Positions 1-55,977 of a DNA stretch of 64,000 bases are shown one piece after another (positions within the stretch are counted from its first letter, which is position 1; the number at the start of each line of letters is the position of its first letter). Location: positions 26,102,001-26,166,000 of the forward strand of contig NC_047026.1 of assembly GCF_902652985.1 (NCBI RefSeq). The letters run 5' to 3'. Made by a program: the position numbers and the translations under genes. This DNA comes from Pecten maximus. Its lineage: Eukaryota. The notes beneath the pieces were generated by a model. The model had not been told where the DNA came from. It saw only the letters and a program-made list of their open reading frames with translations, and did no database searches.

Positions 1-57
1 TAACTCTCAAAAGACAGCGTCTACTTAAACAATCATACTTATCTATATCATACTTAC

Positions 58-234
58 ACGTCATTAACGATGACACGCGCTATTCCTCCGTTTAGAGAGG
101 CCACCTCATCACCCTGCTCTCCACCTATTGTGATCTGGTATTCTGGTGGATCGTCACCTCCCGCAGCAAACCAGCCTTTCTGTTTATGCTGGAGCGTCAC
201 TGATGTCCCATTAAGACTGACCTTTACGCTGTCC
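58..234 (-). CDS. Gene A exon 24 (LG3 C-terminal part)
   Basis: Acceptor gtgtag, donor gtaagt; phase 2->2; DSVKVSLNGTSVTLQHKQKGWFAAGGDDPPEYQITIGGEQGDEVASLNGGIARVIVND. Confidence 0.85.
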
Positions 235-9200: not shown

Positions 9201-12200
9201 ATTGCGTAGTCATGCAGTAATAAAAAAAAAACTAACGCATTATTCCACTGTACTCACACTATCCGAACACGATCCATACACCACGTTCTTGCTTTCCTGT
9301 AACATGTACATGGGGATATCTCTATCTGTAATGCGTAGTTTTGAGATACAGCCGGTGAGAGATCTGGAAACAATTGGTTAGATAAATAACAATAGCAGAA
9401 TAACAGTTTACACAGTAAAACATGTTAGTTTAAAAGTAATGTACTGCCTCAGAGCAAATCATAACGTAACAATACTCTCCTTAACTATGGTACAACATTG
9501 TCTTGTCGTCAGAAAAATACAACGTTACATTTCAATTGTAATATAAGAAAGCAATATGGATGTTGAAAAGCGAGATAAGCAGGGAGTGTATAGTAAGGAC
9601 TTTTATCAGATACTGATATTATAATTGTTTGTTAAGTATGGCTTTTGGTACATACCGAATAAATACTAATGAATATGGTTGTCATAACCGTGTCATGTAG
9701 AAAAATATTTTTATCATTTACATTATTGAACATTAAACTCAATAAAGAGCGATGTCGTCATCGATATCAAATAATAAACTTTAAAATAGAAAAATGAAAT
9801 TAAAAAAAGATAGAAAACATTTCATCAGGAATTCATCAAACAAGGTTTGTTTCATCAAAAGATAGGATACAATGGAATGTATATCAATTTTTGTAATAAA
9901 GTCTGTACCTGAGCTTAGTTTTACCACCAATTATTTGACTCGTCAAACCTAATCCACCAACATAAATGCCGTCATCAATTCTAAGAGGAATTTCTTGTGT
10001 AAAAGTCTCAGGTGTAAAGGTCTCTGGAACGCCATCTAGGGTTGCTTCTATTTCTTTTGTTTGTACATTCACCTGTTAGAGATCATTACATATCATTAAA
10101 AGGACGATCAACATAGTTTGGGGTTATACGATTTTTCGACATAAGTCAGCAAAGGTTAAGCGTTATGTTCATGTAACACAATATCCACAACAAACATCCA
10201 TCACTAGTGTAACCTGGGTTTAAATAGTATGCTCAATCCAATCCCTAGATAATAAGGCGGCTGTTAATTCGGTAGAACACTACAAGAAAGATGGGCGTTT
10301 TCGAAAGTCATAACCTGGACGTATGTATTTAAAATCCGGGTAATATAATGTAATCAAAACGGGAATAGGGGTAATGACAACAGAACTAGCTTGCATGTCA
10401 AATCTGGGTTATATAAGATTCTAAAAACGATATGGGGTGGTGATAATAGAAATACCCCCTACATGTCCAATCCGGGTAATATAAGGTTCGCCAACTTTTT
10501 CGCGAATCATTTACATAAAGAGTGAAAAAAACCACTATAGACATTCTATCTATTTATTGAATTTGACCAGAAAACTCGACCAGCGTAACCGATCACAAGT
10601 CATTTTATTTCATCTTTTGTAAAAGTAGCATCTGCCTAATAGCAGAAATATTGTAACAATATTAAAGACATGTCAATGACGTTATGTGTAGGACATTTCA
10701 CGAAAATCTGTCAGGATATTGGGTCGATAGAGCGTATTCGAACCAATTTACCTCCACAGCGTGGAATAATCCATCAGCATATATATTTTCTTTACTCCTC
10801 AGAACAGTCGTTCCCCTCTTTGTTCTCGCTTCCATGTGTATGGAACCTTCAGAAACGGAAAGTAGCATTTGCAGGTGCTGAAACAGAGATGAAACACGTT
10901 ACATTAAATACTAAGCTTGGCTGTTAGTGACAAGCCGGTATTTCTAGTATATATATATCTATCTTACAAGATTTAGAGTATATATCAAAATTTGGTGTTG
11001 TTATTTTCGATTCATTCTTTGTTATTCTTGGGTTTATTAACAGGATTGTAAACACATTTTATTTCACATAGCAAAACACCGCGCCATTTTGGGTTGTACT
11101 AATTCCTATAGAGAAGTGTTTTCAAAAGTGAAATAACCGAAGCAGGCATATTCAGGTTAGTTGTGGTTTTCCGGAAGGATAAACGTTATCAACGTCATCA
11201 TAAGCTCCTACGACAAACTAAAATAAGTCATTACCTTTTAGTGAGAACCAGGGTAATAACTATAAAAACTAGAAAGAATGTTGATGTGACGAAATAGGAA
11301 CGTGGCCTTAGGTAATCAGGAGAAGGAAAATCAAGACTACCGAGGGGTCAGGGGTCAGTCAATTGACCTCTGACCCTCAGTTTAGTTCCTCGTGTACCAC
11401 TGATGTGTAAAACATCACTAATCTACATGAGTTCGTTATGTTTTAACTTCCTAGTATTTTTTTAGTTTCCTTGTAAAGTTTTAGCAATATGTAAATCATT
11501 TCAGTGAAAATAATCTTGAAGACAGTATTTTATTGTCCTTCTATGGCATCCATTTCCAGTCGTATATGCCGCCTATTATTATTATCGCCCTAACGTCTAA
11601 ACACGTACAAACCAGATATCATTGTCTTTATATTAGCTCAAGATTTAATAGTGTAGACGTCAGTACCATGAAATATGTTTTGAAGGAAATATCATGAAAC
11701 GCGGATGGATGTTTTATTATTGTATGACAGCGAAGACGTCTGAACACATGGCGGATTAATATCTTGGTCTCATGCATGACATTTAGAATTGTATCAAACT
11801 AATTTTGTGTAGCAAGGTAAAATCAGAAATGAAATGAAAACGTTCAGGATTAATCGTATCACATCGCCAGTCTATTGGCACGAATGAATTTTCTAAAAAT
11901 AACAGTTATAAAATATGTATCTTCATTGTCTCAATCATCAATTTAAGAACACATACAATTCTGAACTTCTCGCACTAGAGCTCTCATCCGAAATATATTT
12001 TGAATACATTTTTGAATATATATAAACTCAATAAAACGGGCCATACAATTGTATACTGTCGTGTTTCCTCTTATCAATATACTTTCTAGACGGATAATAT
12101 CGGATAATTGATGGTCATATTTGTTATATGTGGTGTGATATTGTCTCTATTATTACGTCAACATAGGGATTGAATTTTGGGATTTCACAACTTACCTAAT

Positions 12201-15200
12201 GCATACTAACTGGCGTCAACATAGGCCAAATTATTGACAAGAGTAAACAGAGTTTTAAAGCATTTCTGAGAAATTTCCATACGGTTGTTGAATATTTCCT
12301 TTCTTTGCATTTGCAGGAATGCCAGCAGTTGCCTTGCAGAAATGTAACTTGCTAATAGAATATTTCGGTATAGAATGTTCTCAGTTTCCCTGTCCAGACA
12401 TCAGAATGAAACTAGGAACGTTTTTTATTTCATTGTTTTCATTGTGTGACATGTCATACCGCTACACATGTTTATGCCGTGAACTAGTTAAACCATACGG
12501 ATTCTGCATTCAATAACTGATAGTGTGTATAGTGAGTACTGAAAATGCAACTACTGTGGCGTCCGTACAGGACATGCCAAATATGGTAGTGTCTGAAAGT
12601 GCAGAATTCCAGAATTTAAGCTTTATAAATCCAAATAACAAAAACAGCTGTTCAATTAACACAATAACTTGTCGATGATACAAATAATACACATATAATA
12701 CAACAAAACAAAGCGCACCTGTCGCTGGTCATTAAGGAGGAGCAGGACACCTTCTCGTTGGCGGGTAGAAAACTTCAGAAATAGACTATCAACTCGATAG
12801 TAGGGACGTAAGATGGACATAGGAAACAGTACATATCCATCACCATCAAACACCATCGACGGCGAAGTGGGCCAACCACTATTGAAAAAAAAAATCAAAT
12901 TGGTATATATTTAAAATTCTTAAATCTTTATATCAAAATTGATATTTAAAATATCTTAAAATATGTTATCAAAATTGTTATATAATCAAGATTCTTAAAA
13001 TCTGATATCAAATTGTTATATAATTGAAACTCTTAAAATTTGATATCAAAGTTCTAGTGATATAATTGAAATTCTTAAGATTTGATATCAAAATTCTTAT
13101 TCACATACACTCTGAGATATCTCATTACCTCACCTCAATAAGGTTATCCAGGCAAATACTAAAGGGAAATTATACAGAATACCTGATAAAATGTATTATT
13201 TATTTATATATGATCTACCATTTAGAGGTACAGGTCCTCACGGCTTGAGTCGTGTTGCCTGTATTGGCTAATCCAACAGCTTGTCCGTTGACTATGACGC
13301 TTCCAATACACCCAGAAACATTAGCACTTCGCTGAAAAGTAGAAGTTGCGTCTAAAGTACAACAACCAAACAAGAAGTGACAACGCGTAATAAGAATTCT
13401 ACCTCAAAATGGATTAACAAGGAAATTAGGGACGAAACATAAACTACTAAGTACTTCAACAAGTACAAATTATTGGATGTTTCTGTCGCCATACCTGTAA
13501 TAAGACTATCGTCTTCAATGAATGTTTCTTTATTGTTTCAGTTGTTGAATATTCTTATATTACTGATTTTTGTGTCTTCTTCATGGACATGACAAGAAAC
13601 AAAACAAAAAAAACAAGCAAAAACCAAAAAACAACAACAAAACAAAAATATCTATCTTCCTCACAGTAAAGAAATCAAAACGGAAACACATGTCACATAT
13701 TCACTATTATTATACCTTTACATTTTTTTCTCTATATAAAAGTAATGTGATAATTTGACTATCAGCCTCGAGAGGATTGCACATGTGTTTCCATGACCAT
13801 CACACCGTGTGACAGTTCGAAAAAACTGTCACACGGCAAACTGTCACACAACGAACTGTCACACCCCTGCTGTAACGTCGTCAGAACGTTTGAAAGACAC
13901 AACGACATGCAAGCGCTTAGTTGACACAGATTTTGTTTTGTTTTCTCTCACGAAACTGCCACACATGGATCAACACACGCGTTTTCAAAACGCCACAGAC
14001 GTAGAGATTGAGTCAATATTAACGGACAGAGATAGCAAACACACTATAAAAACATTATATGAGATACCGACAATGGATTTTAACCTATTTATTAGAAAAT
14101 TTTACGCAGATATTCGAAAGGCTTCTGGTGAGTTTTATGCCAAGAAAAAACGTAAAGGTATAATAAAACAGTTATCAAATGGGTATGAGGGCGATAGTAA
14201 TTTTGTCAGCCCCGAAGCAACAACTGTTGCACGAGGGCTTTACTATTTTTTATTAAGTCAGATAACAAAACCATTGTCTACTTTGAATATCGATGAACAT
14301 CAAAATATAACCACGCTAGATATCTTAGTATCACATTATGTGAAGTCTATCATTGTATTCTATACTTTTTTATGCTGAAATATATCTCTAGTCCTTAAAC
14401 ACTTATTTCTCTATCCACTTTTTTCATTCAGTTTTAACATTCACTCCTGTCGTCAGGTACAGGTAACCTTAAGTATCCACTTCTTTCATTCAGGTACAGG
14501 TAACATTAAGTTCCCACTCCTTTCATTCAGGTACAGGTAACATTAAGTATCCACTCCTTTCATTCAGGTACAGGTAACATTAAGTACCCACTCATGTCAT
14601 TCAGGTACAGGTAACATTAAGTTCCCACTCCTTTCATTCAGGTACAGGTAACATTAAGTTCCCACTCCTTTCATTCAGGTACAGGTAACATTAAGTTCCC
14701 ATTCATGTCATTCAGGTACAGGTAACATTAAGTTCCCACTCCTTTCATTCAGGTACAGGTAACATTAAGTTCCCATTCATGTCATTCAGGTACAGGTAAC
14801 ATTAAGTACCCACTCCTTTCATTCAGGTACAGGTAACATTAAGTTCCCATTCATGTCATTCAGGTACAGGTAACATTAAGTTCCCACTCCTTTCATTCAG
14901 GTACAGGTAACATTAAGTTCCCACTCCTTTCATTCAGGTACAGGTAACATTAAGTACCCACTCATGTCATTCAGGTACAGGTAACATTAAGTTCCCATTC
15001 ATTTCATTCAGGTACAGGTAACATGAAGTACCCACTCCTTTCATTCAGGTACAGGTAACATTAAGTACCCACTCATGTCATTCAGGTACAGGTAACATTA
15101 AGTTCCCATTCATGTCATTCAGGTACAGGTAACATTAAGTACCCACTCCTTTCATTCAGGTACAGGTAACATTAAGTTCCCATTCATGTCATTCAGGTAC

Positions 15201-18200
15201 AGGTAACATTAAGTACCCACTCCTTTCATTCAGGTACAGGTAACATTAAGTTCCCATTCATGTCATTCAGGTACAGGTAACATTAAGTACCCACTCCTTT
15301 CATTCAGGTACAGGTAACATTAAGTTCCCATTCATGTCATTCAGGTACAGGTAACATTGAGTACCCACTCCTTTCATTCAGGTACAGGTAACATTAAGTT
15401 CCCACTCCTTTCATTCAGGTACAGGTAACATTAAGTATCCACTTCTTTCATTCAGGTACAGGTAACATTAAGTTCCCATTCATTTCATTCAGGTACAGAT
15501 AACATTAAGTACCCACTCCTTTCATTCAGGTACAGGTAACATTAAGTACCCACTCATGTCATTCAGGTACAGGTAACATTAAGTTCCCATTCATGTCATT
15601 CAGGTACAGGTAACATTAAGTACCCACTCCTTTCATTCAGGTACAGGTAAAATTAAGTTCCCATTCATGTCATTCAGGTACAGGTAACATTAAGTACCCA
15701 CTCCTTTCATTCAAGTACAGGTAGTATATACCACTCCCTTTGTCGTTAACGCCAGCACTGCCAATGACGTCTTTGATTTTATTAATAAACGTTTAAATGC
15801 ACTACCGGGGAAAGCTGATTATCACATCACAAACTGTCTACTGGGTGTGACGAAAAGGTCAGGTATAAGTAGGTTGATACCCTTACTTTATCTACCAAAC
15901 CAGACCGGATGTACAGATACCTGTGTGTGGAAATAACGAGCGACACCATTCAAATATTGTGTAATACATGTACATATATTGTTTTGTTTTCTCGCAATAT
16001 TTTGAGTTTGATCATCAGTTTATCGTATCCTGCAGTGGTTCTATTTTCTTTTGAGGGATTAAAATAAAACAACGTAAAATATTTACTGAGCATGTACAAT
16101 TATAGAGCAACCTGTTCATTTTATATTTAACACGCAAATAATTTTAGGAATTTAGACATTTGGTATACCCGCGAAATAATGACCGTCGATAAGATACAAC
16201 ATTTGAATGTTAATATGAGACTTCCTATCTGTGAGATGTTAATTTAGGTTCATTCGATTTTCATGTGCATATATTAGCTTGCTTTTTTTTTTTTATAGTT
16301 TCCGTTATTTGTGTTATTTTCAGCAATTCTTTTTGTCATATAAGTACCAAAGAAACTAATATACGACAATATAATGAGAAAGAATATATATAGTATCCAC
16401 ATATACAAATTTGTTTCTGAACCACGCGCATTAAAGAATTTATTTTCTATTTTAGCGGCAAGAATTATATGTACAGTTTATTTCACAATGCCGTTTTTAC
16501 ATTATTTAAGTTATTATAACTGTCACCGTTTCTATATAATTACACATAAATTATAATCATCCTTTTCAGAAAGAATGGAAACTCATCCAATACAGATACA
16601 AATTCTCGTGTAAAGACGATCTATGTCAAATTATTAGAAAAATATTCAAATTTTCCTCAATATTTTTCATAATCTAATTATCAACTTTATTGAATTTTCT
16701 AAAACGGATTTCAATTATTACTTCCAAAATACATTTTAATACAACCGATTTAAATTTCGGATGTTTTTAATTTTCAGTTGCGAATAAAGTTATTCGCCGT
16801 TAAGACGTTTGAGATATAATAATTGGGTAAAGTTTTCGCAATAATTAAGAATTAGGTAATAGCGATTATTTTTTACAGCTTTTTGTCCCGACAAAGAACA
16901 ATAAAACATGGATAACGATGTTCCGCTTGATCTAAAGACGGAAGTTTCAGTAGACCCATCCCAAAAATGAAAGAATGTAGCTGATTCAAGTAATTTAAAA
17001 TCAATATGCCATACGCTTACCTGGTCGGGGGGACTGGAACCGCTAACCTGCACAGTTGTCGGAGACCTCTGTAATACCTGCATGTCTGGGAAAGCAGTTG
17101 CCTCTAGAGTAGGCTCAGTATCATTGCCCAGTCGAGTTGTACGCATCTCAATGGTGTGACCGGTTCTGATCAAGAAAAAATTCAATAGCTTATTGGAAAG
17201 ATATAATTCTGTCCATCAAATCTGCACACCATGGAAAACGAAATTTAAAAGTGAGTAAAGTTAAGAATGGCAAAAAGATGTACTTCGGCGACATCAAAAG
17301 TACAAGAAAACCAGAAAGTGATTTGATACTCATATCAAATAGATAAACCGTGGTATAGTAAACTTACCTAGTAACATGCAAGTTGTACCACTGCGAGGTC
17401 TCCAAAGTAACGGAGGATTTGATTGTACCGTAAAGTTCCCCATCTGTCCCCGTCACAGAAACGGTAGGTACGCTATCCACGAGTTCTATACCATAGGCTA
17501 CCTATATTATATATTTAAACATAATTTAAATATTTTGAAAATTGATTAAGGCCAAAAGAACACTGCAAATGTTTTAAATCGTCTATCTCTATGATAAATA
17601 ACATATTTGAAGATACAGTCTACATTTAAAACGGCAAAAATGACGTCAATTTTTATATTTACTACAATCAGTGAAATGAGATGATAGGACGGTGATGAAA
17701 TTATAATTGAGAAGTTTGATAGCTTTTATCGGGCTTGCAATTGAAAACCTTACACTATGCCAGTACACTATGCCAGGTAACTATGCCAGGTAACTATGCT
17801 AGTAAACTATGCCAGGTAACTATGCCAGTACACTATGCCAGTTACTTAAGATACCGAGATCCTACGGTTTTGGTTATTTATCTAAATAGAGTAGAATGAT
17901 ATCAAGCGCTTGTCTTTAGGTAACATTGTAAATATAAAGAATACAGACATAATAACGAAACCAAAATTCAAATTCAAAACTTATTAAACAAGGGTAAAAT
18001 ATAACGAAATGCAAATCTACAAGTCTATATAACCTTACCAAAAACAATAGAAGGCTATGATGTAGTGTAATGATATGAAGAACAATATTCGTGACGTATT
18101 GTGTATTTGACCTCACGAAAATTCGTGCTACCGGTGAAAAAAAAACCCGATTGACCAATGTAGCGTACAACAATTTATGTCGTGATGTTGTATAAAGGTA

Positions 18201-21200
18201 AAAAAAAACTTCATGTTGGAATATATTGATTAAAATTGAAATATTAAGATTAAAAATAAATTGTAAATTTGATTTCAATTTCCACTAAAATGTACTTTGA
18301 TGTAAATTAGGATGACATGTTCTAGTTACGTCACAAGAATGGGTCCAAATGACAGCGCGAAATCTCACTTAAGAATTCGATAGCACTGTTACAGATTAAA
18401 TATAAAAAAAAAAAATTTGAAACGGAAATGACAATGTTAAACTTAAGTTATTCTTATTAGTCTCACAGGATTACAGAAAAAAGTCATCATAATACTTAAC
18501 GCGTGTTATTGAGCTTGTCTGCAATCATGTGGGAAGTATAAAAGAAGGCAGATAAATGTAGAATTCATACTCATACGGGGGTATCAATGTAAAGCATATA
18601 GAATTAAATAAAATTATAAAATAACCACTTCGTTTTGACATATCGTTAAAATATTTTGTAAGAAAGTATGATAAATATAGCATTCACATGGGTCATTATT
18701 ATTTTTCTGTATTGAAATAAGATGTTTTGTGCTTTCTAATAGACGAGAATGAAAGCGGTCCCATATCCAAAATGATAAGTGTTCGTTGCGGAATACGGAG
18801 ACTTCCGAAAGAATGTGATTCGAGTCGCTAGGAAATATATATTCAACGATAGGTCTTGATTAAGATTCAGCATATGTAAGTACGTGTACTGATAAATTCA
18901 ATTCAGGAGAACGATTTGCAAGCTCAAAGCATGTTTAAAAATTAATACAACACCAAACCTAACATTGGTTTGATTAGCCTTCACAATAAGCTACTATTTT
19001 AATATTATGTTTTCTGAAATATTCCTAATCGTTTTCGATAAGATAAAGAAAGATACGTGAAGCTGGTTATACGTTGTATTAACAATATCTGAACTATTTT
19101 TCAATTTAACTGGAACGCCATGTCATGTCTAATATCTGACAGGCAGGACTTGACAACTTCCAAATGTCAAACGTTGATGGACGATGGGTCACTAGGTTAG
19201 TGAGGAAATTCTACTCACTTCTCCGTTTCCATGGAAACTGGCTACCGTCATTGCCGACCTCTCCGGTTTAAAGCACACCTCTAGCGACGTCACTGGAGAC
19301 AGGGTTTCACTTGTTGACGACACCTCCGCATTGTATTCCCTTCCGTCCACCATCGCTACCGCCACCTTTATAGATAATTGTCTGTTATATGTAGGTATAA
19401 CGTTATATATTGGTTCCTTTTACTAATTAGGAAATCCTTTGCGATTGCAAACTGATATTTATTTAGTATACGGCAGATGCCAGGAAAAGGGATTAGTCAG
19501 GTCGTTAAACCAAGAAAAGTATATTTCATAAAACTCATATTTGTCGGCATTGAATTAAAGTCATATTTCAAATTACATCAGCATTATTTCTATCAACATC
19601 AAAATTGAATGAAAAATTGAAAAATTAAATAGCGTACCGACAATGTTTACCTCTCTTTAACAAAGAAACTATTATTTTAATTCATACATCAAAAGTTATT
19701 TCTCCTTTGTTTAGAGAGTAGAACGCAAAAACGGTCGACAACGTTTGTTTGTTATTCGGATTCATCGCCCTGTGGACAGCAATGGGTATGTTTCGGCAGA
19801 TGAGATAAGCTGGTGACTACCTCAGTGTGAAGCATCCGGAGGCTTGCCATCCAGAGCAATCAGGGTTAAACGTCTTTCCCAAGGATACGGCCATGCCAAA
19901 ATGGGTTTGTTCTTGGTCACTACTTTTTGAGAAACACAAACCGCCCTGGACAGGGGTCTGAGGACAAACTTAGGATCCTACACTTCAGGATGAGTTGTGT
20001 AGTGTGGTAATTGGTTAACAATCGCAATCCCTCTATAGTATAGTTTTTACGATTTATCAATGTGGATGAGAAGACCTTTAATTGAGATGTCCAGCGGTAC
20101 ATATACGATTGACATGTTGAATTAAGCGTCATCACACCAGATCAAAATCAACCACAGCGTCAATATAGGGATATACTATTTTATAGCGTCATCATGCAGT
20201 GACAAAATGAATCACAGGCTCATTACACATGCTCAATATCAACCACACCGTTAATCCTCAAAGACAGAATATATATCAGCGTCACACAAAAGGGAAGAAT
20301 TTATCACAACGTCAACACAAAAGGGAAGAATTTATCACAACGTCAACACAAAAGGGAAGAATTTATCACAACGTCAACACAAAAGGGAAGAATTTATCAC
20401 AACGTCAACACAAAAGGGAAGAATTTATCACAATTTCAACACATAAGGACCGAATTTATCACAGCGTCAACATAAAAGGACAGACTATACCACAGCATCA
20501 ACACACAAGGCCAGAATATACCACAGCGTCAACACACAAGGACATAATATACCACAGCGTCAACACACAAGGACATGATATACCACAGCGTCAACACACA
20601 AGGACAGAATTATCAGTGTCGACAAACAAGGATAGAATATACCACAGCGTCAACACACAAGGACAGAATTATCAGTGTCGACAAACAAGGATAGAATATA
20701 CATGTATCACAGCGTCAACATACAAGCACAGAATATACCACAGCGTCAACATACAGAGATGTAATATACCACTTTACAACACGAACAAGACAGATTATAC
20801 CACAGCGTCAACACACAAGCACAGAATATACCACAGCGTCAACAGACAAGGATATAATATACCACTTCACAACACGAACAAGACAGATTATACCACAGCG
20901 TCAACATACAAGCACAGAATATACCACAGCGTCAACAGACAAGCACAGAATATACCACAGCGTCAACACACAAGGACAGAATATACCACAGCGTCAACAC
21001 ACAAGGACATAATATACCACAGCGTCAACACACAAGGATATAATATACCACAGCGTCAACACACAAGGATATAATATACCACTTCACAACACCAACAAGA
21101 CAGAATAAACCACAGCGTCAACACACAAGGACATAATATACCACAGCGTCAACACACAAGGACAGAATATACCGCAGCGTCAACACACAAGAATATAATA

Positions 21201-24200: not shown

Positions 24201-27200
24201 GTAAACTACATCATAAAAGGTTGTCATTGTTCTATTTTTCCTTAGTTTGGAATAAAGGATAAAATTACATTGTCCGTTTCAAATTGCAACATGATTTCTT
24301 TAAACTTTCCGAAAACTCATTAATGCTTGGTCAATACGAAACATACGTGTACTTTTAAACAAGTTATCTGTTTGGATGTAAATGATGCACTTACGGAATG
24401 AATTATGATAAGCCCCTGCGTTTGGGTCATCACCAAAGGGCCAAACCCAACCTCCAGTATCTTCATTGTCCTTTTCGCTTTCTTCAATAACGAAGTCAGA
24501 TTCTTCGTTACCGCTCCCAATTTCTATTGCTGTGTCTATTTTAGTCGTAGATACCGACTCAGTAGTGGTAGGAGGTGGGACTGTGGTGGGTTCACTCGCC
24601 AGAGTTGTAGGGGTGTTTGTAGTTGTGGTAACAGGCGAGGTTCTGGTAGTGAAAGATTCTGTACTGTGAAGAACTGTTGTGGTAGGTTTGTCTGAGACAA
24701 CAGACAATATATCATCCCCACTAAAAACAATATCATCGTCGTCCGACGTTGTTTCGAAATCATATATTGATGGGGTCATTGGTATATTTTTCGATGTTGT
24801 GGAAGGAGATGGAGACGCGGTTGTCGGGGCAGGTGTTGTTGTTTTTGGGCGGGGTGTCGACGGGACTGTTGTTGATGGCCGCTGAGTTGTCGGGATTGGT
24901 GTTGTTTTTGGGCGGGGTGTCGACGGGACTGTTGTTGATGGCCGCTGAGTTGTCGGGATTGGTGTTGTTTTTGGGCGGGGTGTCGACGGGACTTTTGTTG
25001 ATGGACGCTGAGTCGTCGTGATTGCTGTTGTTGTTTTTGGGCGGGGTGTTGACGGGACTGTTGTGGATGGACGCTGAGTTTTAGGCACAGGTGTCGTTGT
25101 TGTAGGCCTTTGCGTCGACGGGACATGTGTCGTTGTTGTAGGCCTTTGCGTCGACGGCACAGGTGTCGTGGTTGTAGGACTTGGCGTCGACGGAACTGGT
25201 GTCGTGGTTGTTTTAGGGTTTGGTGTCGACGGGGTCGGCGTCGTTGATTTGGGCCGGTCTGTCGATTGAACAGCCGTCGTCGCTTTTGGGCGGCGGGGTG
25301 TTGGTTTGGCAGGCGTTGTTGTTTTGGGGCGTGGGGTTGACGGCACTGTTTTCAGTGAAGGTGACTTCGTTGATGGAGGTAAAGATGTTGAGGGACGTTG
25401 TGTCGAGGGACTTGTCGATACTTTTAATGTTGTAGACTTTGTAATAGGTGTGGAGGTGGTAGAAAGACGTGGTCTAGGGGTGGTCATGCTTGCAGTCATT
25501 AGCTCCTCTCCACCACTTCCTAATATGACGATATATTGTTCACAATCGATTACCATATCTTCATCATCGCCCCCTCCCGATCCCGTGACCAAGTCTTCAC
25601 ATCGCTCACGAAGTATAGCTTCATCCGCCAGCAATATACGTAATTCGTCCATTCTTCTGTCGAGTTTCTGACAAAATCAAATGAATCAGTCAGAGATACG
25701 CATAATTGTAGAGTAATATATTGGAAAAAAAATTAAAAGTTATAGATTTCCACCGAAAAACTCTCACTAAATGAAATAATACGAGACTAATCTATATTAA
25801 CAAATCTTAGATCCGAGGTCAGATGTCATATTCAGACAAACTCCAAATGAATCGACTTTTACTATACCCAGTACGTCACCAATGTATGACATATAATTTT
25901 TTGCACTATCTGGGTAATGTGGCTATGTGCTATTCACCATTGATCTTGAAAAAGGCAGAAATGGATCGTTTAAATTGTTTAAAAGAATTTCATTTTCGAA
26001 CTAGTTACAGAACAAACGTTTAATGTAGGTAAAAGAACATTAAACTCCTACCCATACAAAGGGAGGTTACCTAGTATTTACAGGACCTACCACTACAATA
26101 TCAGCCAGTCTCCCAACAATAGCCAACAACTGCAAACGCACGTTATTTCCAGTTTTGCTCCTCTTAGCTATAAACTCCTTTGCCTTTTTCATTACGGGAA
26201 TTATCGTTCTGGAAAGGAATAACATCCAGTCTTTATGTTAAACCATAAATTTGTAGACTCAAATTTACAAGGATCAAACTCATCAACGTCTTCATAAATT
26301 CAATGTGATTATGGAGAAAAAAAGATTCATGCTACATGTATGATGATTTGTGTAAAATTAACTAAGCATTTTAACAAAATGAAAAGATAAAGAAAAATGC
26401 TGTCTTTTCATCGTTATATCAAATAACGTAAAAATTGACTTACAGCACTTTGCGGTTTTTTTTACGTGATCTATTATTTTTATATACCTTGCCATTGACT
26501 CCACCGTGCGCCCTAACTGTCGGGATTTCTGATAGCTGTCTGTGGCTAGTTGTTCGATTTCATCTATGTTAGTAATGGGCGCCATTGTTTGGAACACGGT
26601 TTGGTCATTCGGTGGCCGTCTTTCAATATAGGCATTTCTTAATGCTATATTTCTCTGAAAGAAATTAACAGAAATTATTTGCACCAGTAATATATTAATT
26701 TGTAAATTTTACCCATTAAACTCATAATATATATAATCATATACCTTACTTTGCAGTCATATTGTGACGTTTCAAGTTAAATCTGTGTTTGCTCAGATTA
26801 TTATGGCTTAATTATCATGCTTTGTTATCGATTAAGCATGAAGGGATGCTACAAAATGTAATGATTTTCTAAAATAAAAACCTCAATAAACGAACACCGG
26901 ATATCATTATTTTAATTATAGGTAGATAATCATCTACTGCAGCACATTCAATGTCATCAACACCAGAAAACTGTATCGTTAATTTTCTATTAAGGTAAGA
27001 ACTTCTACGATAATGTTTTTAAACGAGAACGTAGATATCAAATCAATACACTTACATTGTATGCTTATCTTTGGTATGTAATGATAAGTATAATTTGCTA
27101 CAAACAGGGAACTAATATATAACTCTACTGACAGAAATACAATCAAGCAAGAGAGGAAGAGAAAAGATAAAGGCCGACAGGGGAATAGTTGTAGGGGGAG

Positions 27201-30200
27201 ATACTGATGAAAAATATAGAATAATAAGGAGAGAAATCAACCACATACAAATATAACTGTGGCCTGGATTGCTTACTAATATCCCGCCGCCCAATCATAC
27301 CTGATTCAAACTCTGGCCATAATTGCCCACTCCCGAATCTACCTCGATCCCCATTCTGTCACATTGTTTTAATACATACAAAATGGGAGGGCAAATCTAA
27401 CATACGTTTCGAAAAGGTCGAATAAAAACTTTTGGAAGAGTTGACAGGTCAAGATTCAAGCGCAGGAATAGCGACATAACTACCATTAAAACATAAGCCC
27501 AGGTGTACAACGTCAGTGTAGGATGTCTATAACAATGTTTCGGGTATACACCTATAGAACAAGATGGGAGGTAAAAGGGGGAACGTGAGTGAAGGATATC
27601 TGGTCCTGGTCTTATCAACCATTACCTCAGGGAATTCCTTAAGGAACCTTCCTTCAAATCCGCAATGTTTCCATATGGAAAATCTTATGTTAAGGTTCCT
27701 TAGGCTAAGGGATTCCTCTGAAATTGTGCGGACACCACACTTGCATTAAACTGTCATATACTAACATATATATTCAATTTCATTCTGTATAGGACTGAGA
27801 TAATGCTATATTAGTATGAAAAAGGAGCAGTTCACCAATATTTGTCTTTTCGAGAAGACTTCATACCTGTACGTCCCTTTGGACGGCTCTGATTTCCTTG
27901 TTAGCTGTGTAGGAGTAGTTTCGGGCATCCATGTACCGGTCTGTAAGACTGTTCAGGTATCGCTGTATGACAGAATACGCCATGATTATTTAATAAATTG
28001 ATTAATGATCAATTTAAAGGTAAACCTTGACAAGTATCAAAATGTATGTTACATACGATGGATTTATCTAATGGATATGTCCCCCTTGAGAAGTCATCTT
28101 TGTTGATGGCGAATCATATGGAACATAACAACAACATTGCTTATTTTCATGGTAGGTGAAAATATCAAGACCATAAGCTCGGCTTACAGAAACGCTTGGT
28201 AAAAGTAACCGTATTAAGTTAAAATTTCACCTGGTACGTATGTATACGCTGTCGGACGTCTCCCCGGATTTGTCCGTACAGTCTGGTTTCAATCCTACGA
28301 CGGTAACGAGCAATATCTACAAAGAGAGCCCTGGCATCCCTGTTTTTAAAACTCTTGAAGATTGCGTCATACTGACGCTCCTGATCCATACAGCGACTGA
28401 AACAAACAATAAAATATATTCTTTAGAAGTTAAATATAACATATACGAAATGCACCAAATACACTATGGTGAAGCTAAACCCATGTGCATAGTCTTTGGT
28501 ACCTGATTTTAAATCTCAAGCAAAGACATAAAGGTATACGTGTACCGAATGCGTGGTGGCTACGGACATAAAATTAGAGTGATCGGAAAATAAAGAATAT
28601 CAACAAATAACAAAACCGTAAATCGGAGTCAAAATATATTAGACGACAACAATATCAGAACAGATATATGTATGGCGACCCTTCAAAGTGAACAAGGAGA
28701 TTAAAACCAGGTTCTCCAGAGAATAAGCGTCTTCTGCTTCATCGACGACACGCGCTATACAAATCTAGATCAAATCTTGGTTAAGCCACAATCTCGATTG
28801 AGAGTTAAGTCATAATAACAATCATGAAACACGGCTGAGTTCAAATCGCACAAGAAATATAATAATATTTCCAAATGAGATCATTATATCAACTATAAAA
28901 CACTCTAATGGTCTTCATCAACCTTCATCAACCTTCATCAACCTATCAACCTTCATCAACCTATCAACCTTCATCAACCTTCACCAACCTATCAACCTTA
29001 ATCAACCTTCATCAACCTATCAACCTTCATCAACCTTCATCAACCTATCAACCTTCATCAACCTTCACCAACCTATCAACCTTCATCAACCTTCATCAAC
29101 CTATCAACCTTCATCAACCTATCAACCTTCATCAACCTTCATCAACCTATCAACCTTCATCAACCTTCACCAACCTTCATCTCTCGAAACCTTGGTCAGG
29201 TTATTAAGCTGTATTAGAATTTAAAAGACATATCAATGCCATCAGTCTGTAAATTGTATTTGTAACTATGTATGCAGTGGCTTCAATGAAATGTCACGCT
29301 GTATCTTAGATTCAGTAGTTTGGCTAAGGATTTAGTGTTCTGTAGACAGAGAAAACCTCAATGGAGACTACATTTATTTTTTATTGCCAAGATTCCACAG
29401 AAACAGATCGTAAGGGCCAATAAATAGTGGGTAAAGTGAGTAAAAACGATACATAACAAACACAAAGGTAGAATTAATATGCCGACGTCGAACAATAGCA
29501 CACAAATACATGACATCGCAACATGCTTACACATAAATAGAGATATGTGACAATGATTAGAACAATCTGGTTGAATAGGCCAACAACTTCCAAATAATGT
29601 AAAATTGTGTTTATGCTGAGAGTTTCTAACAGAGATCCGAGATTTGTTATGTTTTGTGGAAAAAAAAATAGCTCATGTTTGCTGGAGGTCAATGTGTTTT
29701 ATCGTGACTGGTTCCTTGTATGGTACATGTATGTACTGAAACTGAACTTCCGACTTCAGTTGAAAAGTGTATATAGTTGTAAATCAAAAGCAACTATCAT
29801 GTGACATCTAATAACGGGTAAACAGAAATAAGTGAAAGTGACAGGATCCTGGTTCATAACAGTTCACAAAAGATCTAGTCTGCCATTAGATTCCAAATGG
29901 CCGTCATTAACCTATTGCTGTCGTGAAACATGGACTCTTTGACATGATACTGTGTGGAAAACCGTAATCCTACGTCCAAAACCGATAAAACGAGGGTTCT
30001 ATGTGAACAAAATAAATACTAGTAGATTAAGGACGACACCAACCATGTACATCTAGGTCAAATTCAGTTAACACATGGTCTCATAATGAGAACAGGAATG
30101 GTGACGATGGAACCACCTGGTATTTCAACCAGTATCGAACACGTCATAGATGATTCAAGGACATAGAAGTCTTCCAAATTATGTGGACCATAAAAATCTC

Positions 30201-33200
30201 CAATGGTCCTTATCAACCCGCATTTCTCAAAAGTACTGCTGTAAGCTCTGTAGCAGTCACATTACCCCAGTTACTGTATACATCAAGACTAGGCTGAGCT
30301 AAATCCAGTTCTTTATAGCATATACAGATGGTCTTTGCCTATCCGAAACCGTAAACATCATAATAAAATCACAATTTAACGTATATATACATAATGTGTG
30401 ACCTTGATAACTGACTGTTTGATACAAAATGTATATATAATATCTAACATGTCCTTTCGTAACATGTGTATATGTGGTAGTAATATCTGTTTATAGTTTT
30501 ATTATTTATTTGTGTCTACACAGAAAGTTATGAAAGGAAATTATCTGAAGTTCGCACGGTCTTTATATCTTATTTCAGAATGATGGAAATATTACCAAGG
30601 TAATTATCTCGTGTTTATAGGTCTATAAATACATTTAACCATCTACAAACAGGCATGAACTTCACATAACCGTACTATGGTAATGAACCTCATATTATGT
30701 ACAATTTGCTTCCTCAAGAGATTGCTTTATAATGTCCGTGAACTATATTTACGGAATCATTATTCTTTATATGATAATTTAGATAAATTTAGCAAATACT
30801 AATTGTTTGTATTTCTTTATATAGATATGACCGATCAATAAATAGATAAATATTTCCAAATGTGTATTATCCTTGATACCTTTTAATTCGTTCTAGGATC
30901 ATATGCATGGCCTTGGCTCGACTTTGTGCTTGGTCAGCGAGCATGACTTGATGGCTGAAATCTTTAAAATGCATATCTGGGGGTATGCTCATGGACACCG
31001 GTGCCACGCGTCTCTCATACGCCCTCAGGTGCACGAAGCGCACGAGCTGTGTGACATCAAGCAACGCATCTGTGTGGAAATTAAATTGGAATGTTAATAC
31101 AACCATATACTAACCCTGACTACCCCATACTACCCCATACTACCCATACTACCCCATCCCCACACGACCCATATTACCCCATATTACCCCATACTACCCA
31201 ATAATACCCATACTACCCATCCCCACACGACCCATATTACCCCATACTACCCCATCCCCACACGACCCATATTACCCCATACTACCCCATCCCCACACGA
31301 CCCATATAACCCCATACTACTCCATCCCCATACGACCCATATTACCCCATACTACCCATGCTACCCCATACTGATCCCATACTACCACATACCAACCCAT
31401 ACTACCCCATAATACCCATACTACCCCATACTGATCCTATACTACCCATACTACCCCATACTACCCATACTACCCCATAATACCCATACTACCCATACTG
31501 ATCCTATACTACCCCATACCAACCCATACTACCCCATACTACCCATACTACCCATACTACCCCATAATACCCATACTACCCCATACTACCCCATAATACC
31601 CATACTACCCATACCAACCCATACTACCCATACTACCCCATACTACCCATAATACCCATACTACCCATACTACCCCATACTACCCATACTACCCATACTA
31701 CCCCATAATACCCATACTACCCCATACTACCCCATACTACCCCATACTACCCATACTACCCATACTACCCCATACTGATCCCATACTACCCCATACTACC
31801 ACATAATACCCATACTACCCCATACTGACCCATACTACCCCATACTACCCATACTACCCATACTACCCCATACTGATCCCATACTACCCCATACTGATCC
31901 CATACTACCCCATACTACCCCATACTACCCCATACTACCCCATAATACCCATACTACCCATACTACCCATAACCATAATACCCCATACTGATCCCATACT
32001 ACCCATACTGATCCCATACTACCCCATACTGATCCCATACTACCCCATACCATCCATACTACCCCATAATACCACATACTACCCAATACCCATACCCCAT
32101 ACTACCCCATACTACCCCATAATACCCCATACTGATCCCATACTACCCCATACTACCCCATAATACCACATACTACCCATACTACCCCATACTACCCCAT
32201 ACTGATCCCATACTACCCCATACAGATCCCATACTACCCCATACTACCCCATAATACCCATACTACCCCTTACTGATCCCATACTACCCCATACTACCCC
32301 ATAATACCCCATACTGATCCCATACTACCCCATAATACACCATAATACACCATACTGATCCTATACTACCCCATACTGATCCTATACTACCCCATACTGA
32401 TCCTATACTACCCCATACTGATCCTATACTACCCCATACTGATCCTATACTACCCCATACCAACCCATACTACCCATAATACCCATACTACCCCATACTG
32501 ATCCTATACTACCCATACTACCCCATACTACCCCATACTGATCCTATACTACAACATACCAACCCATACTACCCCGTACTACCACATCCTGTCATGCTTT
32601 ACCCTCACATTTTCATTCTAACAAGAATGATTTAATGTTATAATTGATGAAATTGTTTGAGAAATTCGAGACAGATACTATATTTGACTACCATGATCAG
32701 GAATGGACCGGACCAAGGAAGGACCGTTCCACATACTACCTCATACCCCCGGTATACTTATATAGAATATGTGTGGTGGTAAGCCTGCTGTGCACTATGA
32801 TATTAAATACAGCAGAGATAGCCTTTGGTCTTTTTATTATAATTATTATTGTTGACTCTCAAGTAAAAGAGAGGAAGAGTCAACTTTAAAGTCATAGGGT
32901 CTACAATATTCATGCAAAAATGTAGGCCCAGTTTTCATAGAAATGACTCTCAAGCTGAATAAACAAATTTGAAAATGCCTTACATTGTTTTGCTTGCGCT
33001 TGCGCTTGTCATAATCATCATTCAGGAGGTTTTTGCGATTGTTTTCTGCTGAATTCGACTTAATACCGTAGCGCTTGGTTTCCAACATTTAAAAAGATTC
33101 ATACATTTTTGGATTACACATTTTCTTGTACTATCATTTTAAACACGGGATGTTTTGGGAGAAATATCGCAGATCTTATGTGTTTAATACAGATAATACG

Positions 33201-36200
33201 TATATGAATGGAATACAAAATAAATCGACGGAACAGAAAATCTCTCATGTCATAAAACACTCTTTTAATTACATGTGTAGCCAAACAGAGGAAGGGATGA
33301 CAGGATATTTCTGTTGTAAAATTTGTATAATAAACAGAGTCCAGGACATATTTAAGGATTAAATGAGGTAATTATTGTTTTCCATCGAAACTGAAGTGTT
33401 CTCTGTCGCTTTTGAACACAGGCTTTACGTTTGTGACTGAACATTATAAACTATGACATGATAGAAAGGTCGCGTTCAAAACATCACGTTTAATTTAGTT
33501 TATTCGTGTTAATATTAAATATCAAACAGGAAAAGGAAAATCAGATATAGATAGGCTTCCTACTGTAACCAAGGTAAAAATCGCAACACGGTCTACATTT
33601 ATGTGTGTGACATTTGAAATGAAAACGTTTTGATTAAAATCATGTTTATCTATTTCTAAATCAGTTTTACATATATAAATGTATATGTTTCGTGTCATTG
33701 CTGTCGTGAATTCAAATTGTACACAGATACAGATGTGACCATTGTTTAAACGCTGGCCTGAACCTGAACAGTGGCAAGTTGAAACATAACAAATCTAGTT
33801 AATGAACAACATTACACCCAGGATATCAAAACCAATGGGGAAATTCCTGAATATTTTGTATGATAGTGTATTGCGTACTGACCGTAAGCCCGATTGTTTT
33901 CGTCATGAATGACCTTCAGCTGGTTTTTCACTTCTGTTATGTCATGTCGTGCACCAGAGTGAATACTCATAAAACGTTCGCTCACCTGAAATGTATCGCA
34001 AATGGTTAAAATTAATTTCGTTTTAAAAATCAAAATCTGGATATATTTAAATATAATTAGAAACTGCTCTTTCTCAATCGCATTGACTACCCTGTTTTGC
34101 TGTCATGGTTTATCAATGTTGTTTATTTGTTTGTTTGTTTGTTTGTTTTTTTAAGAACATTTTGTATAGGTGTTCGTATAAAGGTTCCGTATTAGGACAT
34201 TTAAAACATAAAAAACATAAGTGGTCATTGAGTACTTCTATCAACAGTCTGATTTCATGGTACAATATTTGTTACACATATTATCCTTACATAAAACACT
34301 TAATTATTTTGTTTAAGATTTTTACAAATTATACTGTACCTTTTTCACTTTCTTTTGCATAATTTGAAGGACATTTGCCATGGTCTGTTTAAGGTTGTGA
34401 ACCGCCACGTTTAGTTTGGGTCGCATTCGTTGTTCCTGGCATTATACAGAAAAACAAAAACTTAAGATAGATCTTCTTAATGTCAACAAATATCATGATT
34501 ATGTGCATCCTCCATCTTCGGTATTATTGTTATTACCACTACAATAATAACGTAAGAGGTCTGAAAACGTTAATCTGTAAATCATTTTTAAATGATAAAC
34601 TTGAATATATGTTTTACGTTATAAAGACATAACACAAAAATGGAGTAAACTCTAGATAAACCGGAAGCATATTAATATGATAGTACACTCTGGGTTTGTG
34701 TTTTATACGTAGCTCGATAACATAAGCATATATTCAAGTTAATCCTTATAATTCAATTTACTATACACGATCACTGTGAAAATTATTTTTTTATGAACGG
34801 TTTATTTACAGTTAAGTAATTATATTAAAGGGTACAGTATATGGCTGCACAACACACAATAAGATATTAAAGATTGATAATGATTGTTACACTATATGGC
34901 TGTACAGCACACAATAGACACTTAAATAATGATAGTAATGAGGACATTTGTATATACCGAATAAGAGTAATATCAAACGTCCTAGAAGTCGTCATTAATG
35001 CTTGGGGCAAAACGTGTGAAAATTAAAAAAGGAAGTTAGAAAAATCTCAATGCGTCTCACTTATAAGATTAAAATATCGGAGAGGTGCACTACAACAACT
35101 TAACATCTAACAAGATTTGCTGAATATATGGTTGTCTTATTAAGGTTTTCTACAGCTCATGTGTATGTTTTAATGTTTTTAATGCGCGCTACATATACCA
35201 AAACTGCTCGTGCTGTAAATTAGGCTTATCAATGATGTCCGCCGCCGAATTAAGAAGGATTTTTTTTTTTTTTTTTTTAGATGCGTATGCTTTAGGAAGA
35301 CACGATTTACATATGATGGCGTTAATAAGCTGGTCTTAACTTATCTCCCAACATTGCAGGTACATTAATGATCAGTGAATCGTACGATACAAACGAGCGT
35401 TCCGTAAATCTTCCTAGGACTGGGAAATAGAACAAAGCTAATTCCTAACCGACATGTTTTTCTGTATTCGGTAACAGTGATACTGCAATTCGACAGTATT
35501 CTTCGAGATATACATATTTGAGTAAATGCGCAAGGGGGACTACTACTAACAAATACACAAACAAATTAATCATTATTGAAAGAAATTGCCCAAAATATTC
35601 AACACTCAGTTTGTTGACTAAACTAATCACAAAATTAGTACAAGTTAGCTCAAATTTCATCAAAATTCATTTACTTAAAATTTTCCATAGTAAAACATTA
35701 CAAAATTTAAAGGTAAACGAAATGCTGATTTGTTTTTTATTGTTTCCACAATTAAAACATTCACTCATCATTCAATTTTATTATTTTATTACTTTAAATC
35801 GTCTCATGTGTGCGTTATATTTTTTAAATGGTAAATAATAAAGGACCTCTCGAAATCGCATGTTAAACCTAGCATGAGTTATCGCTCTTGAATCGTTTCA
35901 ATTTTTGTTTTCTATGGATACTTTAAGGAATGCCTTAATGTAAGGATCGTTGAAAAAACCATGACCCGGAAAAAAACAGTCTTACCAGTCTGGAGACCGC
36001 TGCAGGCGCTCTTTGTCCATATCCATAACGACGTCTGTATCCTTGACGACGACTGTACCTGAAAGGAGAATGGTTTTGCATTCCATTCTCCATTGCTCCA
36101 GGACTTATCTGGAGGTCCTTGTCGTTGTATTGATGGTGTACCCCTATGTTTCTGTGGTAGAGCCGATTCTCCGACAATTAAGCCTTGTCCACTTATTGAT

Positions 36201-39200
36201 AGATTTCTCGATTTACTACTATCTTCTGTGAGTGATGTTCGAAATAACTCTTTTTGAGATGATCTGTGATGTGGTGGGTCTCTTTCAAAAGCGAGTTCGT
36301 CATTTTTGAGCTGTAGGTTTCTGGGTGATTCTTGTCGATGGGATGCAGATGGATGCTTCCTGCCTTTCTTCTTGTGATGTCGCCTCCGATTCGTTCTGCT
36401 ATTTCTTGGAAGCTCTGTTCTTGTTTTTCTATCGCCATGATGTCCCGGATGAAGTGCTGGCGACTTGTGAAGAGCATCAAGTCTTTGTCTGTGTCTGTTT
36501 CGGATATGCCGTGTGCCTCTCCTGGATGCACTGTTGTGATGTCTTTTCTCTGTAGTAATATCCACATTTTCACATTCTGTAATAAAACATACATCAAATC
36601 AAATAATTTGAAAAAACATTCGTTCCGTGAAAATGAAGGTATTTTCTTCTTTTTTCATTGCTTTCTAAATTATGGCCGGCGGAAACACAAACCCCTTTAC
36701 TTATGCTATCACGGTGAAACACCTAAAGCACTACTCCATACTATTCTTGATAAGCAGGAAAGAAACAAACTCTGACTAGTTTTGCATAAGATAAACAGGT
36801 TGAAATCCCGAGCACGATAGTTTATTGGTCATCATGTGTAGATCCTTGGTTACAAATGTAAACATAATTATAGATAACCCTTCATAAGTAGTTTGATATC
36901 ATATTCTCTCTTCTGATCGAAAACCTTGGCTATATGGGTTATCAGTAAACGGATAGAACACCAAAAGAACCCTGTTATATATGGGGTTTTTGTGATGTTG
37001 TACCCGTTTACTTATAACCGATGTAGCCAGGACTTTGTTTGTGATATAGCCATTTGCTAGCGAAAAAAAACTCTTGATATATAATTAGTTAACGGATACA
37101 ACCCTGGCTACATAGCTTATTAGTAAACTGGTACAAAATCAACAATCCCATGGATACATACGATATTAGTAAACTGGTACAACATCAACAAAATCCTGGA
37201 TACATACATTATTTGTAAACGGGTACAACGTCAACAAATCCCTGACTACATAGGCTATCAGTAAACGGGTATAACACCAACAAAACCCTGACTACATAGG
37301 CTATCAGTAAACGGGTATAACACCAACAAAACCCTGACTACATAGGCTATCAGTAAACGGGTATAACACCAACAAAACCCTGACTACATAGGCTATCAGT
37401 AAACGGGTATAACACCAACAAAACCCTGACTACATAGGCTATCAGTAAACGGGTATAACACCAACAAAACCCTGACTACATAGGCTATCAGTAAACGGGT
37501 ACAACGTCAACAAAACCCTGGCTACATAGGTTTTCAGTAAACGGGTACAACACCAGCAAAACCCTGGCTACATAGGCTATCAGTAAACGGGTACAACACC
37601 AACAAAACCCTGACTACATAGGCTATCAGTAAACGGGTACAACGTCAACAAAACCCTGACTACATAGGCTATCAGTAAACGGGTATAACACCAACAAAAC
37701 CCTGACTACATAGGCTATCAGTAAACGGGTACAACGTCAACAAAACCCTGACTACATAGGCTATCAGTAAACGGGTACAACGTCAACAAAACCCTGACTA
37801 CATAGGCTATCAGTAAACGGGTACAACGTCAACAAAACCCTGACTACATAGGCTATCAGTAAACGGGTATAACACCAACAAAACCCTGGCTACATAGGTT
37901 TTCAGTAAACGGGTATAACACCAACAAAACCCTGACTACATAGGCTATCAGTAAACGGGTATAACACCAACAAAACCCTGGCTACATAGGTTTTCAGTAA
38001 ACGGGTACAACACCAGCAAAACCCTGACTACATAGGCTATCAGTAAACGGGTATAACACCAACAATCCCCTGCATACATACGTTATTAGTAAACGGGTAT
38101 AACACCAACAAAACCCTGGCTACATACGTTATTAGTAAATGGGTTGATCATTCATCAAAACCCTGTGTTTATAAGAGATTTGTAAATTGGTAGATACATC
38201 TCATCAGTAATTGGTTGGTAAGTAGGTAGACAGGCTACATAGGTTATTGATGAAAACTTCAAAATCACATAGGAAAACCTAGCTTGTAGTTTATTGGTAA
38301 TGGCGCAGTGTAGAAGACTCCAGTAACTGTTTGTCACGACGGCGTTCAGCGAACCTATATCAAATTATTGTATTAAGACAACTGTTAAAAAGGTTCCCAA
38401 TAGTACGCCCAGTTTACGTCACGCAGTGTCGAACTATCTCGTTTTGCCATTGAGAAATACCCGTTCAGCCTATCCTTGCTAAAGAATCTCGATTAAAGAG
38501 AACATGTCAAGAAACTAGGCCATATTTCCCATTAGTTAAGGTCAATCAAAAAGTAAGAGTATCGAATAACCAGACCCATTCACGTATCCAACACTTACAT
38601 TACACAAATCTTTTAAATAGCCAGTAACTGTAAGAACTTGTAAAATGTCAATGAATGGAATTCTACCAAACATATTTAAATGGTAAAGAGAATAAGTTCA
38701 AATGGTTCTACACTGATTTACTTCTTTCTTTAATATATAACTTGTTTTTGAAAATAATTTAAACAATAAAATAGCATTGGTGAATTATTGGTTTTGAAGT
38801 CGTCCTACCAATTATACACTTTATATTTTCGTACACCTTGTTATTAACCACTGTATATTTATCCAAGTCAGATATGATCTTACAGTCATAAAAAAAACTC
38901 CCACGCAGCCTTTTACTACATGTATGTTAAATACTACATAGTAGATGTATTAACATGTCTTGAGTTACCTGTATACATATTTTACATAGATAAGCTAAAA
39001 CATGAACAGTTCACCAAACTGGTTACGAAATAAAAATCCTAAACGTGGCGCCACTTTGTGTTTGTTTGCGAAGTATTAACATTACAATAGCCGTAACCCA
39101 TGAACTGAGATATCGCCATTGACTAGATACGCCGATATTTGTCATGAGGTGATTTTAGAGGTGTGTTATTTTCAGCCAATCAGAACCGTGTATGGTATAT

Positions 39201-55737: not shown

Positions 55738-55977
55738 TCACGGTGTCTCTGTCTCGTCTGTCGCTTCGTCATCATTTAATTTGTCATCACTTAATTTTTT
55801 ACCATTTAATTTGTCATCTCCGATTGAAGTAACGCCATTTTTCTTCCTGTTACATAACCTTAGAACCCCAATAATTACTAGGTCCGATACGATCTCTATA
55901 ATCTCGAACAAGGACACGATGGACAGTCCTATCCAGAGTCCGAGCTGACCACCAATGTCCGATAACAGGTTCGCTAC
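55738..55977 (-). CDS. Gene B last exon (TM2, cytoplasmic tail, TGA stop)
   Basis: tttatatag|VANLLSDIGGQLGLWIGLSIVSLFEIIEIVSDLVIIGVLRLCNRKK...DETETP*. Confidence 0.95.
   Translation of the reverse strand, partial: VANLLSDIGGQLGLWIGLSIVSLFEIIEIVSDLVIIGVLRLCNRKKNGVTSIGDDKLNGKKLSDDKLNDDEATDETETP

Follow-up and report, generated by a model that had tools for sequence, protein, structure and literature searches.

In syndecan, agrin and collagen XV/XVIII, acidic GSG clusters lie around or within Ser/Thr/Pro-rich disordered regions. Among laminins, the alpha4 chain has a few LE modules, and its primary papers are reportedly Sasaki 2001 and Kortesmaa 2002. The glycosaminoglycan site of the gamma2 chain, at position 803, lies within the long arm, and we know of no dedicated multi-site insert on this chain. 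The portions available of PMC11260871 describe vertebrate alpha4 (laminin-411/421) as a non-polymerising chain with five encoded LG domains and a truncated short arm that lacks LN, and they name alpha3A and alpha4 as the truncated non-polymerising vertebrate alpha chains. In the parts available of two further papers, chondroitin sulfate is reported on alpha4 (PMC4195691; site 40 in a table of PMC8418075) and on human gamma2 (site 803 in the same table). Glycosaminoglycan chains begin at Ser-Gly sites that lie in disordered regions close to acidic clusters, according to the sections available of PMC8418075 and PMC10424144; the former gives E/D-G/A-S-G as a proven stringent chondroitin motif in C. 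elegans and shows that motifs over-predict, with 19 motif-bearing C. elegans proteins not found modified.

The window analyzed here, a 64,000-nucleotide stretch of the genome of the scallop Pecten maximus, carries on its minus strand a gene (LOC117339075, RefSeq model P0002) that encodes a signal peptide, a disordered arm, a coil and three LG domains (Table 1). A Pfam scan of P0002 returned LG domains alone, with no LN, LE, L4, transmembrane or collagen domain and no match to Laminin_I/II. Compared with the definition of a laminin alpha chain, the product has a long coil homologous to domains I/II and an LG tandem right after it, but three LG domains instead of five, and the LN domain and LE/L4 short arm of a polymerising alpha chain are absent. 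Like alpha4, this chain is headless and is predicted to be non-polymerising and glycosaminoglycan-bearing; unlike alpha4, which carries its glycosaminoglycan near the N-terminus and has five LG domains and LE modules, it has its sites within the coil, three LG domains and no LE, and the comparison is one of description, the mollusc chain being its own clade in a tree with no row labelled alpha4. With alpha1/2 and alpha3/5 it shares homology of the coil and LG1-3, intron phases and the fold of the integrin-binding fragment, whereas it lacks LN, LE, L4 and LG4-5 and has two disordered insertions. A glycosaminoglycan site on a laminin chain, predicted in our case, is also a likeness to gamma2, which has a single site on a gamma chain in contrast to a multi-site insert on an alpha-type chain. 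The first-pass annotation had drawn an analogy with syndecan ectodomains; it holds for syndecan, agrin and collagen XV/XVIII at the level of motifs, but P0002 has no transmembrane or collagen Pfam match, and human alpha4 and gamma2 are the closer precedents.

Table 1. Features of the host gene, in positions of the window
Feature	Position	Strand	Basis
Exon 1: signal-peptide-like N-terminus, first member of the N-terminal Cys pair; missing from the Pecten RefSeq model	48633..48831	-	
Exon 2: second Cys of the pair, followed by a basic arm of low complexity, rich in His/Arg, replacing the LN/LE/L4 short arm	35986..36576	-	tblastn, sequence
Exons 3-9: N-terminal portion of the laminin-alpha-type coil (P0002 37-348)	26091..34435	-	exon map, hhalign, model helices, hydrophobic period
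Exon 10 (the exon under study): a helical start of ~22 residues, a Cys-bracketed GSG, the mucin-like tract, two further SG sites and a Trp-rich linker	24395..25667	-	
C371-C390 segment enclosing the first Ser-Gly (S378), a putative disulfide loop	25542..25601	-	18-member alignment
Thr/Pro/Ser mucin-like tract, 21-aa and 12-aa repeats, includes the third SG	24537..25502	-	repeat finding, composition, model, alignment
S733, fourth Ser-Gly (EIGSGNEESD)	24513..24515	-	aligned in 3/3 pectinids
Exons 11-13: C-terminal coil portion (P0002 773-956), conserved C924	22013..23758	-	hhalign, phmmer
LG1-LG3 exons; last exon and stop codon just beyond the window (L034:9303-9408)	57..19362	-	Pfam LamG, structure match

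Exon 1 matched residues 1-70 of the Mizuhopecten model P0006 at 71% identity, and its phase-1 donor is compatible with exon 2. In tblastn, P0006 matched exon 2 in two frames, which places a frame break of the assembly near 36150-36170, within 36140-36175 on the minus strand and next to a short G run. This break is probably an assembly error, and would be why the RefSeq model begins at an internal Met and has no signal peptide. LN matches were found at six places in the genome, none of them on the contig of the window; five could be assigned, to netrin, beta, gamma, alpha3/5 and alpha1/2. Since both ordinary alpha genes (alpha1/2 and alpha3/5) sit elsewhere, on another contig, the gene in the window is a third alpha-type gene.

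Exon 10 (residues 349-772 of P0002) had been annotated at first pass as a single 424-codon exon of phase 0 to 1 that interrupts a helical region with about 330 aa before it and 185 aa after it, and that encodes a Thr/Pro/Ser tract with 21-aa repeats, four Ser-Gly sites in acidic context and a Cys pair flanking the first of them. Each of these features was recovered. The exon translates into 424 stop-free codons between an acceptor in phase 0 and a donor in phase 1, and the coil flanks measure about 335 aa and 185 aa. In the predicted structure model its first ~22 codons are still helical and extend the preceding helix, so that the exon is a little larger than the insert itself. The Ser-Gly sites are S378, S399, S664 and S733, of which S399 has the least acidic surroundings (2 acidic residues within 7), and the cysteines are C371 and C390. 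From the second to the fourth Ser-Gly the tract spans 323 aa with T+S+P = 65%, and it contains 63-bp (21-aa) repeats at 24820-25101 and 36-bp repeats at 25087-25233; it is basic over its first 237 aa (32 K/R vs 1 D/E), and its pLDDT is below 50 in an orthologue model. A Thr/Ser/Pro-rich tandem-repeat tract of this kind is a mucin-type domain, for which O-glycosylation is predicted. When exon 10 was shuffled 20,000 times, four acidic SG arose with p = 0.002 and three GSG with p = 5e-5. No Pecten site among the four matches E/D-G-S-G strictly. Ser-Gly in an acidic, disordered context is one criterion for a proteoglycan core protein in the portions available of PMC10424144 and PMC8418075, and the exon has it; covalent xylose-linked glycosaminoglycan, the other criterion, is predicted. 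At the end of the insert (24400-24430, minus strand) lies a Trp-rich motif, GGWVWPFGDDP, and similar motifs occur in several bivalves.

The exon is present in transcripts, as the annotation had presumed: RNA contigs joined it at both ends in all four runs examined, from three studies (CT..AC on the plus strand, that is, GT..AG on the minus strand), two of these runs being recorded as RNA and two presumed to be RNA. No joint skipping exon 10 was listed among the RNA contigs of the four runs, although contigs cannot show absence. These joints bear on whether the gene model is an artefact, either through fusion of two genes or as the 3' part of an ordinary laminin alpha gene that was split. The Pecten model without a signal peptide, the frame break in exon 2 and the RNA contigs that break within the repeats of exon 10 would fit such an error. 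Against them stand the spliced joints on both sides of the exon, the signal exon, the contig without an LN match, the location of both ordinary alpha genes on another contig and the equal layout of independent models from 17 named species, and we regard an artefact as highly improbable.

The flanks of exon 10 are almost certainly homologous to the laminin alpha coil, judging from profile comparison, intron phases and hydrophobic periodicity, as the annotation had supposed when it assigned them to laminin domains I/II. The N-coil profile matched canonical alpha chains in register with a best domain E of 2.6e-14 (Z=1000), against 0.01 for the best reversed decoy. By hhalign, positions 59-289 of the N-flank aligned with 108-342 of the template (probability 95.6%, E 1.1e-8; reversed control 0.8%) and positions 10-186 of the C-flank with 388-566 (96.3%, E 1.6e-9; reversed control 8.2%), whereas the first 58 residues of the N-coil gave no alignment to laminin. 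Extrapolated, the two alignments meet near template positions 380-395 of the ~566-aa coil, and therefore no coil has been replaced by the insert. In phmmer, the C-terminal coil part matched laminin alpha1 (5mc9_A); once the last 30 residues were removed, the match of the C-coil profile to canonical chains was weak (best domain E 0.003). Coil introns follow the phases 0,0,2,0,1,1,1,0,0 in both ordinary alpha genes and 0,0,2,0,[extra 1],1,1,0,0 in the host gene, where the canonical boundaries were read by eye from splice-like sites, not transcripts, and three phase-1 boundaries were inferred. The insert exon and the next 30-codon exon lie at the place of a single ~32-codon exon of phase 0 to 1 in the ordinary alpha genes, and one downstream coil intron has been lost from the host gene (99 aa corresponding to about 40+60). 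Because the flanks are in register with the alpha coil and share its intron phases, exon 10 is a true insertion.

Hydrophobic residues recurred with a period of 3.5-3.65 in four of five flank segments (0/1000 shuffles as high; 34/1000 for the fifth), the N-terminal coil part encoded by exons 3-9 showing 3.55-3.65. AlphaFold modeled both flanks as long helices and the insert as disordered, with low overall confidence (pTM 0.22), and a Foldseek search with the low-confidence coil model returned nothing at E 0.001 or better. The model of the C-terminal half reached a pTM of 0.68, and its best match was to the alpha chains of the integrin-binding fragments of laminin-111 and -511 (E 6e-26). A genome scan with Laminin_II was discarded, as it matched generic coiled coils and was also positive in 8 of 14 control genomes.

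Word-based homologue searches found three pectinids alone, and the idea of a scallop-only gene was overturned by a HMMER search with the C-terminal half, which gave 98 matches with E of at most 0.001, 19 of them at 1e-30 or below; nothing usable came from the ESM Atlas. Taxonomy was looked up for 20 of the 98, and the named members are bivalves and gastropods, together with a C-terminal cuttlefish fragment. We aligned 18 members, namely the three pectinid models and 15 HMMER matches that span the insert, excluding fragments and isoforms. No Pfam match to LN, LE or L4 was obtained in any of 17 family members scanned, and Laminin_II appeared below the cut-off in three relatives and in the cuttlefish fragment. 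Sixteen of the 18 members end 537-589 aa past the coil, which corresponds to three LG domains, and the other two are shorter; in Pecten the stop codon was seen. An N-terminal Cys pair resembling the start of an alpha coil is present in 12/18 models (C-x4-C in Pecten, Mizuhopecten, Mytilus and Haliotis), and a second interruption of 133-564 disordered residues separates it from the coil in the nine members measured. Member P0015 has five additional GSG in this N-terminal disordered arm. Further cysteines are conserved at C924 (17/18), C987 (12/18) and C1504 (15/18) in P0002 numbering; C924 may link chains, and the terminal C1504 may staple the tail to LG1, both roles being putative.

A tree of 41 rows, built from the coil end and LG1-2, places all 17 family rows on a single side of one branch (100/98). 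This clade, on a long branch, lies outside the sampled alpha3/5 rows; the tree gives no parentage from alpha1/2 vs alpha3/5, and one of its rows, P0093, is poorly cut and long. The family is not described in the portions of the literature available by accession, name and topic, including PMC4582122; a paper on laminin evolution or a proteome table may mention it. On sequence grounds, the family is a previously uncharacterised laminin alpha variant with a conserved predicted glycosaminoglycan loop.

The insert occurs in orthologues with variable length, a point on which the annotation had asked for comparison: it ranges from 63 to 442 aa, the 63-aa form being that of abalone. All 18 members have acidic SG (three or more acidic neighbors) in the insert and 17/18 have GSG. 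The inserts contain 40 GSG in total, against 1.5 expected by shuffle (maximum 8 in 2000 shuffles), and 25 of the 40 are EGSG, with Glu at -2. Acidic SG occur at 13.5 per 1000 aa inside the insert vs 0.26 outside, and 14 canonical coils contain no GSG. S378 is kept in 15/18 members and S399 in 17/18, the two insert cysteines are retained in 17/18 and 16/18, and all four SG sites align in the three pectinids. By these measures of enrichment and retention, the SG sites are under selection. In the Pinctada model P0007, the Cys-GSG unit of the insert is duplicated. The mucin-like part is distributed differently: Thr exceeds 25% of the insert in 4/18 members (the three pectinids and Mytilus), reaches 18% in Mactra and is 13% or less in the others, and among pectinids the first part of the tract is 47-49% identical vs 71-79% for the coil and LG domains. 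Since an acidic GSG insert is found in 18/18 members and a strong mucin in 4/18, the conserved element is the predicted glycosaminoglycan loop and the bottle-brush is a lineage add-on. The glycosylated bottle-brush of the annotation thus stands as a real tract, but not as the conserved part. The ancestral insert was likely a short Cys-bracketed acidic GSG loop, with the mucin as a later expansion in scallops and mussels.

The insert could also be a flexible, O-GalNAc-coated hinge or a protease-sensitive linker whose SG are mostly unoccupied, and whose cleavage may free a C-terminal integrin-binding piece. A disordered segment of 63 to 442 aa placed about 185 aa ahead of LG1 would suit this role, and SG motifs are imperfect predictors. 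Such a linker, however, has no need for GSG 26-fold above shuffle, for Glu at -2 or for Asp/Glu downstream, and an R-x-K/R-R site is absent from the insert in the three pectinids. We consider this explanation rather improbable, and glycosaminoglycan occupancy of the SG sites is predicted with good confidence.

We favor, with fair assurance, the reading that the exon is an insertion in the coil of a headless mollusc laminin alpha paralogue, with GSG sites that likely bear glycosaminoglycan on a loop from an alpha-beta-gamma rod. The laminin-proteoglycan hybrid proposed at first pass agrees with the alpha coil flanks, the transcription and the selection on SG, but the chain is a headless LG1-3 paralogue, not a full laminin chain. 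The headless chain would wind with ordinary beta and gamma chains; the Pecten genome retains beta, gamma, alpha1/2, alpha3/5 and a xylosyltransferase-domain gene, and a heterotrimer with beta and gamma is predicted as probable. The insert would loop out with C371-C390 closing the base of the loop, and xylosyltransferase would start glycosaminoglycan chains (chondroitin or heparan sulfate) at the SG sites. The Thr/Pro tract of scallops and mussels would carry O-GalNAc, stiffening a spacer that keeps the SG sites apart. Lacking an alpha LN domain, the trimer would be unable to complete a network node, so that its incorporation would dilute or soften the laminin lattice. LG1-3 and the gamma tail would still bind integrin; the tail Glu is retained in the Pecten gamma gene (aligned to 5xau_C; L026:5742-6002, plus strand), with five further residues after it. 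Dystroglycan and heparin binding would be reduced because LG4-5 are absent. Through its own glycosaminoglycan, the chain would keep the matrix hydrated and form bridges to further components.

Alternatively, the chain could be a laminin-derived proteoglycan independent of beta and gamma that forms a homotrimer, or whose two helical halves fold back on each other at the insert; it would then lie free in matrix or mucus as a proteoglycan headed by LG domains. Two long disordered interruptions, a long branch from the canonical chains, a net basic N-coil and extra conserved cysteines (C924 and the C-terminal Cys) are consistent with this explanation. We nevertheless hold it to be unlikely, because most of the coil runs collinear with canonical alpha and nothing is lost at the insert, the N-terminal Cys pair is retained, and the unit of coil end and LG1-3 is modeled like the trimer-dependent integrin-binding fragment.

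For the heterotrimer, the beta chain offers a comparison that the annotation had raised, the laminin beta knob. Both are Cys-containing interruptions of the coil, but the knob is short, Cys/Gly-rich, located on the beta chain and devoid of an acidic GSG cluster. The scallop beta gene has a Cys/Gly knob exon (L019:6610-6840, minus strand), followed by roughly 360 aa of coil in an exon-based estimate, vs about 185 aa after the insert; the knob and the insert are therefore not in register but at different levels of the rod. The last beta exon gave no match to beta1 in a PDB search and was assigned by gene position and terminal Cys alone.

On balance we lean toward an early-mollusc third laminin alpha, a non-polymerising laminin-proteoglycan convergent on alpha4 with a glycan loop built into its coil. 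If so, one strand of a laminin trimer can accommodate a looped-out stretch of more than 400 disordered residues, and an expandable mucin exon tunes the spacing of the glycans. The family would represent an independent, mollusc-wide non-polymerising alpha, in bivalves and gastropods and probably in cephalopods; beside vertebrate alpha3A and alpha4, it suggests that lattice dilution with glycosaminoglycan addition is a recurrent solution. It also provides a natural test of the size of interruption that a three-chain coil tolerates and of whether register resumes, and the headless alpha is a candidate core protein for molluscan glycosaminoglycans.

Upstream of the host gene and on the same strand, the window contains exons of an amiloride-sensitive sodium channel (ENaC/ASIC) gene at 55741-62454 (Pfam ASC). 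Large intronic minisatellite arrays with periods of 10-99 occupy 5804-7207, 14442-15723, 20259-21886, 31107-32587 and 37100-45280.
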